A stretch of 6,060 bases of DNA, taken from assembly GCA_048938295.1 (NCBI GenBank), contig JBHLMI010000012.1:25143-31202 (forward strand), read 5' to 3'. The stretch's first letter is position 1, and every line of letters begins with the position of its first letter. Under the pieces are notes generated by a model. The model was not told the origin of the DNA and did no database searches. It worked only from the letters and a program-made list of their open reading frames with translations. A program made the translations under genes and the position numbers. Shown piece after piece: positions 42 to 6,060 of the stretch. Source of the stretch: Promethearchaeota archaeon. Its GTDB lineage: Archaea; Asgardarchaeota; Hermodarchaeia; Hermodarchaeales; Hermodarchaeaceae.

Positions 42-965
42 CTACTTTTTGTTTTGTTCACTAGCTGTGAAAACGAGATAGACGCCTTGTGGTGGGATAA
101 TACCTCGTTCTGTGATGAGCGCATCAATGTGTTCATGTCCAGTAACATCGAAGAGTGGATTTCGAATTGTAACAGTTGGATTTATTTCTGCAGTGGGAAC
201 GACTTGGCTTGGATTTCCTTCCTCAAGGGTAATGAGACGCCCTGAAATGGTTTCAGGAGAGAATTTGTAACTCCCCACAGCAATGAGGACACGAACCCGC
301 GCAGCGTGGCATAGTTCTGCCAGCGTCGCTGTTCCTACTTTAGAAACTATTGCCCCATTGGCAGCAATAGCTTCGCCTCCGGTTAACAGAATATCAATAT
401 CGGGTAAGAATATGCGCGCAGCGAAATCTGTAATGAGTGTGACCGGGATGCCAAGGTCTGCAACTTCATTGGCTAAAAGACGGCCTTCAAGGTCGGGACG
501 ACTTTCGGCAACGACTACTTGGATTTCCTTCCCTTGCTCTTTGACCTTTTTCAGAATTGCTAATACTGTGGTGCTACGACATAGTGTTAAGATGCGATCG
601 CCGGATCTAATCCGTTTCGCACCAATTTCCCCTATTCGTTGCTTAGCGTCTGCAATTCGGGCTACAAAGTCATCACAGGCGCTCGCAATTGTTTTACGAA
701 TTTTCTGTAATGAGGCTTTTTTCTGATACACCTGTTGGGCTGCATCTTCGATGTAGTCTAGGCAGTTAAGTAAAGCCGCTGAACTTTGACGAGCTTCCCG
801 GAGGCCATAAGCGGCGACATTAATTTGGTCAAGGAATTCCTTTGTAGATCTGGCAGGCGCCTTTAAAGCAATATCTTTTATCGCTGAGGCGGCTGCAATG
901 GCCGTTCCATCAGCACTAGCGATTTCATAATTCTTGAACTTCTTGATGAGCCAATCAACGTTCAA
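42..965 (-). CDS. eIF2B alpha/beta/delta / ribose-1,5-bisphosphate isomerase family protein; divergent paralog, probably catalytically altered (about 307 aa)
   Basis: Colinear along its whole length with the neighbouring R15Pi: AKRIRSGDRILTLCRS, VVVAESRP, GIPVTLITD, TGGEAIAANGAIVSKVGT, SYKFSPET, RNPLFDVT, IDALITERGIIPPQG. The ORF track starts at 1082, but that would overlap the opposite gene head-to-head. A TTG at 965 (LNVDW...) has GGAGG 9 nt upstream (979-975, minus strand) and aligns with the R15Pi N-terminus, so 965 is the preferred start (inference). Confidence 0.88.
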   Translation of the reverse strand: MNVDWLIKKFKNYEIASADGTAIAAASAIKDIALKAPARSTKEFLDQINVAAYGLREARQSSAALLNCLDYIEDAAQQVYQKKASLQKIRKTIASACDDFVARIADAKQRIGEIGAKRIRSGDRILTLCRSTTVLAILKKVKEQGKEIQVVVAESRPDLEGRLLANEVADLGIPVTLITDFAARIFLPDIDILLTGGEAIAANGAIVSKVGTATLAELCHAARVRVLIAVGSYKFSPETISGRLITLEEGNPSQVVPTAEINPTVTIRNPLFDVTGHEHIDALITERGIIPPQGVYLVFTASEQNKK

Positions 966-1030
966 CGTGTACCGCCTCCATGACAGCATTAAATACCTTG
1001 ATTCGGTATTAAATGCCTCGGCGAAGAGTG
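966..1030. promoter_or_regulatory. Compact divergent (bidirectional) promoter region with two TATA-like elements and RBS-like motifs
   Basis: 65 bp between the divergent starts. ATTAAATA at 988-995 reads as a TATA-like box on +; ATTTAATA at 1014-1007 reads as one on -. GGAGG at 979-975 (-) and a weak GAGTG just before ATG 1031. No TSS data. Confidence 0.5.
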
Positions 1031-2008
1031 ATGACATTAATTCCTCCTGAAACTCAGAAAATCGCAGAGGATATTCAGTCAATGCGTACGCGGGGAGCAG
1101 GACGCATCGCCCGTGCCGCAGCCAAGGGGCTAGTTATTGCTGCACAGGAGTCCAAGGCAAAACAAGTTCCTTCATTTCTTCGAGACATAGCTGTTGCGGC
1201 TCAGTTGCTCTATGAAACAAGACCGACTGCTGTCTCATTACCTAATGCATTGAGTTTTTTTTACACCCGGCTACTCAGCCGGCTTGATCAGACCCAAGGC
1301 ATTGCGGCGTTAAAAGAGGCTAGCGTAAAAATTGGCGAAGGCTTTATCGAGATGTCAAATAATGCAGTGAAAACCATCGGGCAAATTGGTTCACGGCTGA
1401 TCCAAGATGGAGACATCATCTTTACTTATTGTAATAGCGCCACAGCCTTCAGTGTCCTAAAAACCGCTTATTCGATGGGGAAGGAATTTAGTGTCTTCGT
1501 GCCCGAGACCCGACCGAAGTATCAAGGGCATATTACGGCTACCTGGCTGGATAAAGCAGGAATCCCATGTTCGTTGATAACAGATAATTCTATTAGGTAC
1601 CTCATTACACGATCTGACAAGGTGTTTGTGGGAGCTGATGCGATTACGGCTAACGGCGCAGTAGTGAACAAGATCGGAACCAGTTTGGTTGCCCTAGCCG
1701 CAGATGAAGCTCGATTAGACTTTTTTGTCGCAGCTGAAAGCTACAAGTTCAGCCCTGCCACGATGGCAGGTGAGTTAGTAGAAATTGAAGAACGGGATAT
1801 CTCGGAAGTCGTCACGAAAGAAAAGCTTGCAGAGTGGAAACATGTGAGTGTTCGTAATCCTGCATTTGATGTCACGCCTCCAGAATACATCGATGCCATC
1901 ATCACCGAGAAGGGCATCATCCCGCCTCAGGGTGCTATCGCAATATTATATCGTGAGTTTGGATGGTATTCCACGGAACAAGCGTTCCCATGGAATCCTT
2001 ATCTCTAA
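1031..2008 (+). CDS. e2b2: Ribose-1,5-bisphosphate isomerase (R15Pi, eIF2B-like family, archaeal AMP/pentose-bisphosphate pathway), about 325 aa
   Basis: All hallmark motifs of Thermococcus-type R15Pi are present: RGAG (1091-1102), ETRPTAVSLPNAL, TYCNS with the catalytic Cys (1430-1432), ETRPKYQG, VGADAI with the catalytic Asp (1637-1639), NKIGT, ESYKF, NPAFDVTPPEYID, and a C-terminal EFGW...PW tail. Start placed at the second Met (1031), which puts Cys and Asp at 134 and 203 versus 133 and 202 in T. kodakarensis (numbering from memory). The ORF-track start at 1013 lies inside the promoter repeat. Confidence 0.93.
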   Translation: MTLIPPETQKIAEDIQSMRTRGAGRIARAAAKGLVIAAQESKAKQVPSFLRDIAVAAQLLYETRPTAVSLPNALSFFYTRLLSRLDQTQGIAALKEASVKIGEGFIEMSNNAVKTIGQIGSRLIQDGDIIFTYCNSATAFSVLKTAYSMGKEFSVFVPETRPKYQGHITATWLDKAGIPCSLITDNSIRYLITRSDKVFVGADAITANGAVVNKIGTSLVALAADEARLDFFVAAESYKFSPATMAGELVEIEERDISEVVTKEKLAEWKHVSVRNPAFDVTPPEYIDAIITEKGIIPPQGAIAILYREFGWYSTEQAFPWNPYL

Positions 2009-2040: not shown

Positions 2041-2751
2041 CTATTCTTTAGCCTGTGTACGGATTTCCTTTCGCCATTCTTTGATGCGGGCTTCCGGAAT
2101 ACCAGTAAGCAGTGATAGATCTCGGGAATTTTCGGCTTTGAAGTCATCGAGCGACTCTACACCTAGCTCTTTGAGTAGCTTGACATCAGAACGGGTAATC
2201 TCGGGGAGATCTTTGAGCTCCTTAATCTTAGGCTCTTTAGCCTTCTCTTCACGTGCAGCCTTGGTCTTTTCTCGCCCATACCGTTTCGCAGATTCTACGA
2301 GCTTTTCAGCACGATCCCGTTTCAAATCAGTGATACGTGCTAAGCGTCTGGGTGAAATTCTTGCTAGATCATGAATATTCCTTACGCCTGCCACTACAAG
2401 AGTCTCAGAGAGTTTCTTTGCTACGCCACTAAGATTGGTCAAGTCTGTCTCAATGGGCGTGGGCTCCGGTTCAGGTTTTGGCTTTACCTTTGTTGGCTTT
2501 GGCTTCTCAGCTACTGGTGCCGATTTAGACGCCTTTGGAGCGATTTTTAATTTACTGATGCGTTTAGCGTAATCCTTGAGCAGTTTTACATTTTCAGGGT
2601 GTTTTGTTTTCCGCCGACTATCAATGGGAATTGCCATCCAGCGAGCATCCGCTAGCTCGATACCTGCATCTTTCAGTTCAGAGTGGCTGAACCCCCGACC
2701 CCGGCGAGTTTCACCTGTTTGAGGAGCATGAATTTCTGGTCGAAAGGCCAT
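2041..2751 (-). CDS. rpl13e: 50S ribosomal protein eL13 (L13e) fused to a Lys/Pro-rich linker and two C-terminal helix-hairpin-helix (HHH_5/DUF4332-like) modules
   Basis: The N-terminal ~60 aa carry the eL13 signature RRGRGFSHSELKDAG...AR..AIPIDSRRKTKHPENVKLLK. A K/P/A/E-rich linker follows (aa ~66-101), then two similar ~55-aa units: DLTNLSGV...LVVAGVRNIHDLA...L...TDL and ELKDLPEI...LKELGVESLDDF...L...TGI. GGTGA RBS at 2763-2759, 7 nt before the ATG. Confidence 0.88.
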   Translation of the reverse strand: MAFRPEIHAPQTGETRRGRGFSHSELKDAGIELADARWMAIPIDSRRKTKHPENVKLLKDYAKRISKLKIAPKASKSAPVAEKPKPTKVKPKPEPEPTPIETDLTNLSGVAKKLSETLVVAGVRNIHDLARISPRRLARITDLKRDRAEKLVESAKRYGREKTKAAREEKAKEPKIKELKDLPEITRSDVKLLKELGVESLDDFKAENSRDLSLLTGIPEARIKEWRKEIRTQAKE

Positions 2752-2933: not shown

Positions 2934-3551
2934 ATGATGGGACAAAATGATAATCATCGCTTAATGTCTCACACAACCACTGTTGCTGTGAAAGTGAACG
3001 GTGGGGTGGTTCTTGGTACTGAATCGCAAGCCTCAATGGGTTACCTTGTTGCAAGCGATACGGCACCGAAAATTCTGCAGATTACTGACCATACGGCAAT
3101 GACGATTTCAGGATCCGTTGCCGATGCGCAGCAACTCATCAACAATATTCGCGCAATCGCCCAACTCGAATCTTTAGATACCGGCCGTGAGTTAACCGTT
3201 AAAGCGATTTCACGACTCACATCTTCGATTCTATTTCGAAACCGCATGTTTCCCTTAATCACGATGCTTATCGTCGGTGGAGTTGACAAGGAAGGAGCGC
3301 ACATTTACATGCTCGATCCATTGGGCAGTATGTTGGAGGAGGAGAAATTCACTGCCACAGGAAGTGGATCAGTAGTAGCCTATGGTGTTCTTGAAGATGA
3401 GTATCGCGATAACATGGGTGTGGATGAAGGAAAAGAGTTGGTCACACGGGCTGTCAATGCTGCTCGAAAACGCGATATTGCGTCAGGTGGCGCTATTCAG
3501 ATGGCGATAATTAGCAGTGAAGGCGTTGACATCTCACGCGAACAACTTTAA
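2934..3551 (+). CDS. psmB: 20S proteasome beta subunit (Ntn hydrolase) with a 13-residue propeptide
   Basis: TTTVAV mature N-terminus (Thr1 codon at 2973-2975), Glu17 (GTESQ), Lys33 (APKILQI), ISGSVADAQ (Gly47), LIVGGVD, DPLGS, ATGSGS and RDIASGG. Confidence 0.96.
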   Translation: MMGQNDNHRLMSHTTTVAVKVNGGVVLGTESQASMGYLVASDTAPKILQITDHTAMTISGSVADAQQLINNIRAIAQLESLDTGRELTVKAISRLTSSILFRNRMFPLITMLIVGGVDKEGAHIYMLDPLGSMLEEEKFTATGSGSVVAYGVLEDEYRDNMGVDEGKELVTRAVNAARKRDIASGGAIQMAIISSEGVDISREQL

Positions 3552-3577: not shown

Positions 3578-4537
3578 CTAGATCACACAGCAGGCATTGT
3601 GTTTGATGACGGTATAATCATTTTTTTCTAGGTATTGGAGCGTAGCTCTGGTAGGCTGAACAAGACGAGTAACCCCCGCCTGAACTGCGAGCTGTTCCGT
3701 TTGATGTCGAATGCGTCCACGGGGTCGCATACAACCAAGGGCGATTTCTGTTTTGGGGAAGAGGAGCCGGGCGATAGCACAGATGCGAGCAATGTCATAG
3801 GGGTGTGGAGGTGGGCTATTACTCATAGGTGTGCCTTTAGTAGGCATTAAGGCGATAATAACAATGACTCTAGGTTCAATGGTTTGTTTGATGAGTTGTA
3901 AGGCATCAAATTCACCGACCAGTTTTCCATTACGGAGACCAACACAAATGTGGGGGGCTGTGGAAATCCTGTGCTTTCTAAGTGCTGTTAGTGTTGTAAA
4001 ATAATCCTTTGTGGTTCGTTGCTGCAACCCATAGACTAGCTGAATAGTTGAGTCGTCACCTACAACATCGACCGACGCACAGTCTATTCCCGTTTGAGAT
4101 AGTTCATCTGCTTGAGAATCGGTGAGGAATCCCGTATGAACATTCAGAAAAAGGTTTGATGAGCGCTTGATGTGTGCTAGAGCGGGTAGAAAGGGAGTAA
4201 GAGGAACAGTTCCGGTGTCGTCGCAGCCGCCACTGATTAGGCAGCCGACACCTCCTCGGTGATCTAGTGCTTCACAGAATGCGATGAGGTTCTGAGGGGT
4301 TGTAATCGCGTGCATTGCTTGAAGGAAATGCCTGGCACAATGTTGACAATTTAGTTTACAGTGATGCCCCGTAATAGAAATAGAGGGAAATTCAGTACCT
4401 GGATGGAAAATGGTAATTTGCCGATTGAAGGCTTCTTCGGTCAGGGTTTGGGTATGTGAGAATAGTTCTGTAAGTTCTGTGGAGGACACTTCGAACCAGT
4501 CACGCAGATTGTTTGCTCCCTTGCTCAAGGAGCTCAT
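3578..4537 (-). CDS. lipS1: Radical SAM sulfur-insertion protein, LipS1-type lipoyl synthase subunit (biotin-synthase-like)
   Basis: CxxxCxxC (CKLNCQHC, 4360-4337) preceded by FPSISITG, then GCLISGGCD and NVHTG. GCMR (3736-3725) and the C-terminal CC (3592-3587) are the two motifs described as distinguishing LipS1. Start placed at ATG 4537, which forms an ATGA overlap with the upstream ligase stop; the ORF track starts at 4564. Confidence 0.85.
   Translation of the reverse strand: MSSLSKGANNLRDWFEVSSTELTELFSHTQTLTEEAFNRQITIFHPGTEFPSISITGHHCKLNCQHCARHFLQAMHAITTPQNLIAFCEALDHRGGVGCLISGGCDDTGTVPLTPFLPALAHIKRSSNLFLNVHTGFLTDSQADELSQTGIDCASVDVVGDDSTIQLVYGLQQRTTKDYFTTLTALRKHRISTAPHICVGLRNGKLVGEFDALQLIKQTIEPRVIVIIALMPTKGTPMSNSPPPHPYDIARICAIARLLFPKTEIALGCMRPRGRIRHQTEQLAVQAGVTRLVQPTRATLQYLEKNDYTVIKHNACCVI
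3621..3627 (+). terminator. Possible archaeal oligo-T terminator for psmB (lies inside the 3' end of lipS1 on the opposite strand)
   Basis: T7 run ~70 nt after the psmB stop. It could equally just reflect the GAA AAA AAT codons of lipS1. Confidence 0.2.
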
Positions 4538-5331
4538 TTCTTTAGCCCCCGTTGGTATGTCCAATCGGACTTTGCATACCAGGATCCTGCTATTTTTTGG
4601 GCAGATTGGAGTTCAGCGTCAGTTAAACCTTCATCGTAGAACCGTGCCGGCAATGTGCTGGATAATCCTTCAATCAGGGCTTCTTCGATTTGACCGAAGG
4701 AGGGAGGTGTTCCGAGTTCATGCTGTAATGAGGTCATGCTATTAACTGCCTTCTTGATTATAGTTTCATCGGCTTTTCGTTTGTTCACCTTCAAGACGGT
4801 GAACATCTTTACAAAATCGAGTTTGCGAAGGATCGTGCCATGCTGAAGCAAGGTGTTTCCACGACGGGATTGGGCATTTCCAGAGATTTTCCGTTTCTTA
4901 ACGAAGAGGTTGGGACAAAAATTCTCTGACCCAGCTGAGTATTTCGCACTGACACCAAGCCGACTCAACCCCATAAGGAGGCCTTGGCATAGATACTGGT
5001 ACATTTCAACGATGTCGGACGAGAGTTGCATATCTTGAGTTCGACAGATAATACTGTAGGTAAGCTCGCCTTCAAAATCATGATACACGGCGCCACCGCT
5101 TGATAGTCGCCGGACGATGTCAACGTTGAGTTTTCGGCAGGCTTCTACATCGACTTCATCTTCGAGATGTTGAAATCGTCCAATAGATACAGCTGAGGGT
5201 TTCCAGCGGTAGAAACGAACCGTATTGGCAGCAGTTTCTTTATGGCAGGCATCAAGCAGAACATGATCAATGGCCATATTTTCATAGGCGTTGAAAATAC
5301 CGGTGCGGATTAAGCGCCATAGTTTTGTCAT
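4534..5331 (-). CDS. lplA: Lipoate/octanoate-protein ligase family, catalytic domain only (LplA-N / sLplA-like; no C-terminal LplB domain), 265 aa
   Basis: WRLI, NMAIDHVLL, VRFYRWKPSAVSIGRFQ, VRRLSSGGAVYHD, ELTYSI, KISGNAQ (conserved Lys at 4890-4888) and LLQHGTIL. It lies between lipS2 and lipS1, with a 3-bp gap upstream and a 4-bp overlap downstream. Confidence 0.9.
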   Translation of the reverse strand: MTKLWRLIRTGIFNAYENMAIDHVLLDACHKETAANTVRFYRWKPSAVSIGRFQHLEDEVDVEACRKLNVDIVRRLSSGGAVYHDFEGELTYSIICRTQDMQLSSDIVEMYQYLCQGLLMGLSRLGVSAKYSAGSENFCPNLFVKKRKISGNAQSRRGNTLLQHGTILRKLDFVKMFTVLKVNKRKADETIIKKAVNSMTSLQHELGTPPSFGQIEEALIEGLSSTLPARFYDEGLTDAELQSAQKIAGSWYAKSDWTYQRGLKK

Positions 5332-5334
5332 GTA

Positions 5335-6060
5335 TCAGAGAACTCCTGCCAGTTGGTATGTAATTTCTTCAAGAACTTGCGCAGTAGGTGCTTCTGGATA
5401 GTTGAAGATTGGGCCTCCTGGTTGCTCTGTAAAGAAAGGGCGATTACAAGACGGGCAACCTGTCGTTTGAAAAGCCTTCCCTCGTGCAATAATATCCACT
5501 AGGATTTCTCTAGGCAACCCAAATTTCGTAATATCCTGTGTTGAGTTGTATTGAATCTTATCCAAGGTTACAAGTCGGTTTTGCAGCAAATGAAGAGCTA
5601 GTTGAATTCGACGGTATTGTTGAAGTGTTGGACGTTCCCGGTTCGCTAAAGGGGTTCCAAGAATAGGTGTGAAGGGGAATAGTCCAACGGTGATGGATTT
5701 GTTGACAAGCTGGTGGATTAGATTGACCACTTGGTGTTCTGTTTCACCTAACCCGATGATGAGATGCGTAGTCGCCCGATCCGGTCCAAAAATCGATCGT
5801 GCAGAGTTCAAGGCACGAAAATGGTGCTTCCAAGAAAAAGGACCTTTCACTCCAGTACCTTTGATTTCATTAAACAATCTTGGGGTAACAGCGTCAAGCG
5901 ATACTGCCACACGGTCAACCCCTTGGTCATAAAGGGCTTGGAACTGCTTAGCTTTCATTGGAGGAAGTGCAATGGATAGGGGGATATTTGGCAGATGGCT
6001 CCTGAAGAGGGAAACCAACTGTGTTAGATTTTCGAACAGTTTTGGAGAACAAAGTGTTTG
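5335..6060 (-). CDS. lipS2: Radical SAM protein, LipS2-type lipoyl synthase subunit (5'-truncated by the window edge)
   Basis: TTGCPSCNRP (5466-5437) matches the LipS2 TxGCPxC(N/D)RP motif; also VAVSLDA, HLIIGLGETE and LFPFTPILGT. The frame stays open from 6018 to the window end (QTLCSPKLFENLTQL...), so the TTG at 6018 is not the true start, and the CxxxCxxC motif is expected upstream of 6060. Confidence 0.87.
   Translation of the reverse strand, partial: QTLCSPKLFENLTQLVSLFRSHLPNIPLSIALPPMKAKQFQALYDQGVDRVAVSLDAVTPRLFNEIKGTGVKGPFSWKHHFRALNSARSIFGPDRATTHLIIGLGETEHQVVNLIHQLVNKSITVGLFPFTPILGTPLANRERPTLQQYRRIQLALHLLQNRLVTLDKIQYNSTQDITKFGLPREILVDIIARGKAFQTTGCPSCNRPFFTEQPGGPIFNYPEAPTAQVLEEITYQLAGVL

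Follow-up and report, generated by a model that had tools for sequence, protein, structure and literature searches.

A remodeled paralog encoded head to head with ribose-1,5-bisphosphate isomerase in an Asgard archaeon is a candidate ligand-sensing subunit

The DNA considered here is a 6,060-nucleotide stretch of contig JBHLMI010000012.1 from a Promethearchaeota archaeon (assembly GCA_048938295.1), referred to as a whole as the window, and our subject is the gene at positions 42..965 of its minus strand (a range that includes the stop codon). The 307-residue product, hereafter PAR, is an IF-2B-family paralog of ribose-1,5-bisphosphate (R15P) isomerase (R15Pi) with a remodeled catalytic pocket. 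It is arranged head to head with a plus-strand gene at 1031..2008 for a canonical R15Pi, the presumed catalytic partner, hereafter NEI, and the two proteins are 38% identical. In the reading that we favor, and to which we give about an even chance, PAR is a non-catalytic subunit that would sense adenosine monophosphate (AMP) or a sugar phosphate within a hetero-oligomeric R15P isomerase formed with NEI. A conserved sister gene, a rebuilt pocket and an intact AMP site together point to a ligand-sensing partner subunit as the most likely role for this protein. To our knowledge, every R15P isomerase described so far is a homohexamer whose subunits are identical and catalytic, and our literature search turned up no account of a catalytic R15Pi paired with a non-catalytic paralog.

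Remodeling of the catalytic pocket

PAR matches the family profile PF01008 over positions 3–280 of 280 (237.1 bits against a gathering cut-off of 22.4). Its residues were mapped by HMMER alignments to PDB entries 3A11 and 5YFJ and by comparison with NEI, and positions of the canonical enzyme are given in PH0208 numbering. In PH0208, the side chain of R22 and the amides of G23–G25 bind the 1- and 5-phosphates, the full set of 1-phosphate ligands being R22, R65, Q166 and K215 and that of the 5-phosphate being S137, K240 and the amides of A24, G25, K138 and A139 (PMC5789824).

With respect to the lid loop, the alignment to 5YFJ places ASAD of PAR (residues 16–19; 909..920, minus strand, as for all PAR residues below) where PH0208 has the phosphate-binding RGAG (R22–G25), which changes R22 to Ala, G23 to Ser and G25 to Asp. 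The last of these, Asp19, is invariant in PAR and in its tier-2 relatives (proteins of 43–50% identity from other Asgard families and metagenomes), and an Ile stands in place of R29, the Arg that follows the loop in PH0208. Deeper in the pocket, the GAD motif reads GGE, with Glu198 (372..374) at the position of the catalytic Asp204, and NKIGT reads SKVGT, with Ser208 (342..344) replacing the sugar ligand Asn214. Glu160 (486..488) takes the place of the 1-phosphate ligand Gln166, E237 of the AE(S/T)YKF motif is Gly, and the C-terminal EFGW tail is absent. Retained are Cys129 (579..581), the equivalent of the catalytic Cys135, Lys234 (264..266), the equivalent of the 5-phosphate ligand Lys240, and the counterparts of R65, S137 and K215, together with the Arg of RPT, ESRP and YKF. 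A preliminary description of the window had listed these replacements (ASAD, the Ile, GGE, SKVGT, Glu at Q166, the missing tail) and these retained elements, and every residue and coordinate that it gave proved exact in our alignments.

The C135S, C135A and D204N mutants of the canonical enzyme are inactive, and its Cys135/Asp204 pair is described as absolutely conserved and, as the preliminary description had stated, as essential (PMC5789824). In PAR this pair is incomplete, the Cys being present and the Asp replaced by Glu198. Two of the four 1-phosphate side chains are lost (R22 to Ala, Q166 to Glu) and two are kept (R65 and K215); at the 5-phosphate site S137 and K240 are kept, and the change of G25 to Asp puts a carboxylate into the amide loop. 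On TIGR00511, the R15Pi equivalog model, PAR scores 269.5 bits, below the cut-off of 314.1, and NEI scores 380, above it. NEI also aligns with PH0208 at 335 bits, with its catalytic and phosphate ligands all intact. R22, C135, Q166, D204 and N214 are present in 24 of 24 canonical-type representatives, and Glu at the catalytic-Asp position is found in no characterized IF-2B enzyme among the PDB and Swiss-Prot matches. From these sequence features we infer that PAR has probably given up R15P isomerization.

It could be argued instead that PAR is an R15P isomerase isozyme, one that tolerates the Asp-to-Glu and lid changes and differs in kinetics or regulation. R15Pi is indeed the best structure and sequence match of PAR (216 bits, template modeling (TM) score 0.95, 38% identity), the Cys is kept, and public annotations call PAR-type proteins R15Pi or eIF-2B. 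Against this stand the subthreshold equivalog score, the two missing 1-phosphate side chains, the Asp in the 5-phosphate amide loop, the unbroken conservation of the canonical pocket residues and the inactivity of D204N, and we consider an isozyme quite improbable.

The AMP-activator site in PAR and in canonical partners

AMP is a required activator of R15Pi and is bound between three protomers of the hexamer (PMC5789824). The predicted AMP site is complete in PAR, in which Arg118 (612..614), Arg184, Asn203, Arg223 and Arg225 (the stretch Arg223-Val-Arg225, 291..299) and Asp281 (123..125) are the equivalents of R124, R190, N209, R229, W/R231 and D290, respectively, R229 and W/R231 belonging to the hexamer interface as well. 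In NEI, R124 has become Leu and W/R231 has become Asp, both being changes at AMP-site residues that the literature calls absolutely conserved.

A related picture was obtained for other pairs of a canonical R15Pi and an odd paralog. Canonical partners lack R124 and/or R229 in five of eight pairs (the partner at locus L034 being counted as partly intact). R124 is missing from the partners in families f12 and f10, the former also lacking R229, and from the canonical proteins P0139 and P0174; R229 is missing from the L034 partner. The non-canonical members of the pairs retain all AMP-site residues that their partners have lost, and single-copy Asgard R15Pi keep R124 and R229. Because PAR keeps the AMP residues while NEI has lost R124 and carries Asp231, we propose that PAR would supply AMP sensing and NEI catalysis. 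These findings, along with the linkage of PAR to a canonical R15Pi gene, lend support to the regulatory-subunit option raised in the preliminary description. When three canonical-type representatives lacking R124 were picked as a test, two proved to have an overlapping Glu204-type partner (the clade is defined below) and the third, P0142, did not. The stricter proposition that R124 loss is exclusive to paired canonical enzymes was rejected, as R124 is variable in distant canonical-type representatives and P0142 is unpaired.

Gene pairing and pathway context

Of the 15 genomes that represent the genus, 14 have PAR and NEI head to head, and in the fifteenth the contig ends beside NEI. PAR relatives at 43–48% identity are likewise head to head with a canonical gene in two other Asgard families. 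Adjacency to a canonical gene is the usual situation for Glu204-type members, and it also takes other forms: the stop codon of P0057 overlaps the start of a canonical gene immediately downstream (L034), canonical P0139 and P0174 each begin within the end of a preceding Glu204-type gene (L061 and L063), and the operons of P0107 and P0128 (L035 and L058) have the order odd paralog, phosphoribosyl pyrophosphate (PRPP)-synthase-like gene, canonical R15Pi. On the metagenome contig of L058, positions 2775–8587 encode in turn a HAD phosphatase, a Cys-less R15Pi-like protein, the PRPP-synthase-like protein, the canonical R15Pi, RuBisCO and a HAD hydrolase. This operon suggests a route from PRPP to ribulose 1,5-bisphosphate that is served by a two-paralog isomerase.

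In terms of pathway, the genome that carries PAR encodes AMP phosphorylase (668 bits, cut-off 535), form III RuBisCO (517 bits, cut-off 497) and, from a separate gene, a genuine MtnA (389 bits, cut-off 279). With NEI as the only isomerase, the pentose bisphosphate pathway thus already has all its steps, nor is PAR required to fill the place of MtnA. PAR itself scores 125.3 bits against the 279 cut-off of the MtnA model TIGR00512, in agreement with the earlier view that it is not simply this enzyme. Two RuBisCO-like proteins are also encoded in the genome (G000:C2:100549-101382, locus L054, and G000:C25:8617-9459, locus L055), and both score below the cut-offs of every named family of RuBisCO-like proteins.

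The neighbors on the far side of PAR (a geranylgeranyl-reductase-like gene, two unknowns and a Glu/Gln-tRNA synthetase) give no metabolic hint. The reductase-like open reading frame (ORF), just downstream of PAR and outside the window (L057, 4967–6291), is without the FAD-binding N-terminus. A 152-residue ORF in another frame overlaps it upstream, which may reflect a frameshift or an assembly error.

Phylogeny, conservation and selection

A maximum-likelihood tree of 74 rows, rooted on MtnA, recovers PAR as monophyletic (support 100/100) and unites it with the tier-2 proteins (100/100). This clade joins further odd groups in what we term the Glu204-type superclade (99/93), and NEI is placed among the canonical R15Pi. 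The immediate sister group of PAR (P0054, P0057 and P0060) has Gly at the catalytic Cys position. An approximately unbiased test rejects a tree uniting PAR and NEI (log-likelihood difference 94, p = 6.6e-7), and with it a recent genus-specific duplication as the origin of the two genes; judged by this tree, the PAR lineage is an old one. Nesting within a characterized enzyme clade, which would have told against the preliminary interpretation, is not seen for PAR, and the other members of the clade in which it does fall have mostly lost the Cys.

A profile search of 1.84 billion representative proteins yielded 25 Glu204-type representatives. The catalytic Cys (C135) is kept in only one of them, the PAR cluster. 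All 25 have R124 and R229 and each of the phosphate ligands R65, K215 and K240 (Lys234 of PAR), D290 is kept in 23, position 231 is Arg in 21, and Glu replaces Gln166 in 18. On these counts, what selection has maintained across the clade is not catalysis but the residues of the AMP site and oligomer interface, along with part of the phosphate pocket.

It is here that the strongest competing explanation has to be weighed, namely that PAR is an active homo-oligomeric sugar-phosphate isomerase for a new substrate, a pentose monophosphate or other less charged sugar phosphate. It would use Cys129, and Glu198 as a longer base, in a pocket with fewer positive charges, and the reaction would have metabolic ties to the R15Pi/RuBisCO pathway or to the genome's two RuBisCO-like proteins. 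Within the PAR clade, Cys129 and the equivalents of R65, S137, K215 and K240 never vary, the D204E, E237G and N214S changes appear coordinated rather than random, the RuBisCO-like proteins are present, and purifying selection on PAR is as strong as on NEI. The closest relatives of PAR and most of the Glu204 clade are nevertheless Cys-less, yet they resemble PAR in the Glu, in the Lys/Arg ligands and in being paired with a canonical R15Pi, which implies that the function common to the clade needs no catalysis. The absence of Glu at this position from characterized IF-2B enzymes, and of any substrate-specific gene beside PAR other than NEI, also speaks against a new isomerase. Overall, we see this explanation as a serious but clearly lesser possibility, and continue to favor a non-catalytic sensing subunit.

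With regard to constraint, the changed residues are invariant across about 50 protein clusters (P0001–P0051, 68–100% identity). The pairwise ratio of nonsynonymous to synonymous substitution (dN/dS) for PAR is 0.07–0.095 (unsaturated pairs, dS 0.29–0.9), in the same range as that of NEI. The ASAD/GGE/SKVGT signature is thus conserved under a dN/dS below 1, which is the check that the preliminary description had proposed. A decaying duplicate without function, which has nothing in its favor beyond the lost canonical active-site residues, is refuted by these values together with the intact ORF in 14 genomes and the age of the lineage, and we give it practically no credence; by its sequence record, PAR is a conserved gene and no decaying copy. 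In the sister genus of the same family (G022, G033, G073 and G114; completeness 80–83%), R15Pi and PAR were not found with these queries, and the genomes carry only an MtnA-type IF-2B gene.

A search for longer or fused forms of PAR returned a single fusion, of the MtnB–MtnA type; neither a fused PAR nor a eukaryotic eIF2B-delta was among the results. Representatives of 446–468 residues, similar in length to eIF2B-delta, were rejected as such, P0259 scoring 159 bits to R15Pi versus 78 to eIF2B-delta. A separate IF-2B group (P0232–P0234, P0252, P0255 and P0259) keeps Asp204 but has Ser in place of the catalytic Cys, Glu in place of Q166 and Gly in place of R190; some of its members carry an N-terminal extension of about 145 residues, and the group is not eukaryotic eIF2B-delta. 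A look-up in the ESM Atlas gave generic IF-2B clusters only.

Structural models of PAR and of a complex with NEI

The AF2 model of PAR is of high predicted quality (predicted local distance difference test score (pLDDT) 93, predicted TM score 0.90) and lies closest to ligand-bound, closed R15Pi (5YFX and 3VM6; TM score 0.94–0.95, root-mean-square deviation 1.1–1.3 Å, 38% identity). The next structural matches are eIF2B-delta, -alpha and -beta and MtnA, at 20–28% identity. Prediction of an NEI–PAR complex gave a score of 0.82 against 0.00 for the best control, with three runs sharing at least 95% of contacts and a partner pLDDT of at least 88. Of 80 solved complexes 58 attain this mark, as do 2 of 110 mismatched pairs, counts that hold only roughly here because our own alignments were used. 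In the model, NEI and PAR meet through their C-terminal domains, at the dimer interface that R15Pi is known to use.

Gene starts and other features of the window

The start of PAR at 965 is TTG, GTG or ATG at the aligned position in the 14 genomes of the genus, and a GGAGG at 975..979 (minus strand), about 9 nucleotides 5' of it, is conserved in the same alignment. The start assigned in the preliminary description is correct. An ATG at 989, used by some gene callers, was rejected because it is out of frame in 3 of 14 genomes, and the alignment likewise led us to reject, as a start, the longer ORF reaching 1082. The divergent intergenic region (966..1030) holds two conserved ATTAAAT(A/G)CCT TATA-like boxes at 988–998 and 1008–1018. 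On the NEI side, the ORF opens at 1013, and only the ATG at 1031 is conserved across the 14 genomes. Since 1013 falls within a conserved TATA-like box (ATTAAATGCCT), NEI probably starts at 1031, and its mRNA is possibly leaderless. Related metagenome-assembled genomes have been labeled by their depositors as Hermod-, Thor-, Hod- or Odinarchaeota, and among the genomes examined the GTDB class is represented by two genera only.

Elsewhere in the window, 2041–2751 (minus strand) encodes a fusion in which the core of ribosomal protein eL13 (Pfam L13e) is followed by a linker rich in Lys and Pro and is combined with two helix-hairpin-helix modules (HHH_5). A proteasome beta subunit gene at 2934–3551 adjoins a lipoylation cluster at 3578–6060 (minus strand), which comprises LipS1 (266 bits, above cut-off), an LplA-like ligase and LipS2, the latter cut by the window end.

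Discussion

The arrangement that best accommodates our observations is a hetero-oligomeric R15P isomerase that would belong to the pathway of AMP phosphorylase, R15Pi and form III RuBisCO. By the model and the alignments, PAR retains the R15Pi fold and the C-terminal-domain surfaces of R15Pi dimers and hexamers, and it has the residues that bind AMP at the protomer interface in R15Pi, R124, R190, R229, R231 and D290, of which NEI has lost R124 and replaced position 231 by Asp. AMP sensing would then come from PAR and catalysis from NEI. As for the pocket of PAR, R22 is absent and three carboxylates have been gained, with Asp replacing G25 and Glu replacing both Q166 and D204. This suggests either that the pocket accepts a ligand of lower negative charge, for example a sugar monophosphate like that of eIF2B-alpha, or that its own side chains mimic phosphate and fill it, Asp19 and Glu160 being the candidates for the phosphate sites. 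What the comparisons show is conservation, age, gene linkage and residue patterns; loss of activity in PAR, its physical assembly with NEI and allostery between them are what we infer.

Several points weigh against this arrangement. Adjacency of genes speaks for functional linkage and not for physical binding, and P0061 and the f14 members, which are on short contigs, are not visibly paired at all. The division of labor at the AMP site is also imperfect across pairs: the sites of the canonical partners at L035 and L058 are intact and that at L034 is partly so, whereas P0142 lacks R124 and has no visible partner. Conservation of R124 and R229 may, moreover, reflect oligomer contacts instead of AMP binding. 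The favorable complex prediction may only express the likeness of PAR to the R15Pi homodimer, because such homodimers are among the solved structures, and it does not separate a hetero- from a homo-oligomer. Finally, PAR keeps the catalytic Cys, unlike most of its clade, and its Glu could still act as a base, which leaves room for catalysis on another substrate.

The regulatory core of eIF2B is a hetero-oligomer of non-catalytic paralogs of the R15Pi fold. Set beside it, this locus and the Glu204 clade look like a living intermediate between a homo-oligomeric enzyme and an eIF2B-type hetero-oligomer, found in the archaeal phylum nearest to eukaryotes, in which an enzyme is paired genomically, and probably physically, with a non-catalytic paralog. 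If a hetero-oligomer with split AMP sensing and catalysis is indeed formed, it would provide an experimentally tractable model for the birth of a pseudoenzyme in the IF-2B family, and the annotation of PAR-type genes as R15Pi or eIF-2B would have to be corrected.

Comparison with known systems

The system closest to PAR is R15Pi itself (TK0185/PH0208; TIGR00511; PDB 3A11, 3VM6 and 5YFJ), with which it has fold, length and domain layout in common. PAR keeps the equivalents of Cys135, R65, S137, K215 and K240 and of R124, R190, R229 and D290 at the AMP site, and its gene adjoins that of a true R15Pi in a genome with AMP phosphorylase and form III RuBisCO. It differs by D204E, R22A, G25D, Q166E, N214S and E237G, by the missing EFGW tail and the score below the equivalog cut-off, and by its place in a distinct clade with good support, in which most other members have no catalytic Cys. 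MtnA (TIGR00512) shares with PAR the superfamily and a Cys/acid catalytic architecture and acts on a monophosphate, which is one option for PAR. In contrast to MtnA, PAR has no N-terminal extension, falls far short of the model cut-off and carries Glu, not Asp.

A functional parallel comes from the ATP-phosphoribosyltransferase HisG/HisZ, in which a degenerate paralog encoded beside the active enzyme gives allosteric ligand sensing to the hetero-oligomer. The fold families are unrelated, and on the PAR side the complex and its allostery are proposed.

The preliminary description had likened PAR at the catalytic position to eIF2B-alpha (PDB 3ECS and 7KMF), citing its Glu and its binding of sugar phosphates. 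Both properties are borne out for the human protein, whose ancestral pocket holds sugar phosphates, the sugar being bound by E198 and N208 and the phosphate by R132 and K234 (PMC8187479). Glu198 and Lys234 of PAR match human E198 and K234, and the 1-phosphate site is degenerate in both proteins. Both would be non-enzymatic descendants of an R15Pi-type fold working in hetero-oligomers of paralogs, as we propose for PAR. The resemblance is incomplete, however, because PAR keeps Cys129 where eIF2B-alpha has Ala or Gly and has Ser208 at the position of the essential N208. Identity to PAR is 24%, the partner of PAR, judged by the genome, is an enzyme, and the gamma and epsilon partners of eIF2B are absent from archaea.

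As a proxy for eIF2B affinity, in place of a tree with eukaryotic sequences, we compared the bit scores of Glu204-type and canonical profiles against the PDB. The two profiles score the eIF2B subunits about equally (Glu204-type versus canonical: eIF2B-delta, 182 versus 173 bits; human eIF2B-alpha, 151 versus 143; yeast eIF2B-alpha, 166 versus 170; eIF2B-beta, 117 versus 120), whereas R15Pi (376 versus 506) and MtnA (about 150 versus about 215) strongly favor the canonical profile. Such evenness is what would be expected from a shared loss of enzyme constraints and appears to indicate no specific kinship to PAR.

These scores also bear on the notion that PAR is an aIF2B-like translation factor, for example one that binds aIF2-alpha, unrelated to the enzymatic role of NEI. 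Binding to aIF2-alpha has been reported for archaeal IF-2B homologs, and the R15Pi homolog of H. volcanii is an interaction hub (PMC8576121). The same study of haloarchaeal interactions speaks against a ternary aIF2B complex in that setting. The Glu of PAR at the eIF2B-alpha position fits such a role. The genomic linkage is, however, to R15Pi, PRPP-synthase-like and RuBisCO genes and not to translation genes, PAR lies far below the PH0440-type aIF2B model NF006210 (130.1 bits, cut-off 339), and the profiles reveal no special affinity for eIF2B; we regard a translation factor as very unlikely, even more so than an isozyme. The evolutionary counterpart of this idea, that the Glu204-type clade is the closest prokaryotic relative of eukaryotic eIF2B-alpha, -beta and -delta and that the eIF2B core arose from an Asgard hetero-oligomeric R15Pi, is speculative and in our estimate unlikely. 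Were it nonetheless true, a non-catalytic, metabolite-sensing subunit of the kind we propose for PAR would already have existed before eukaryotes arose.

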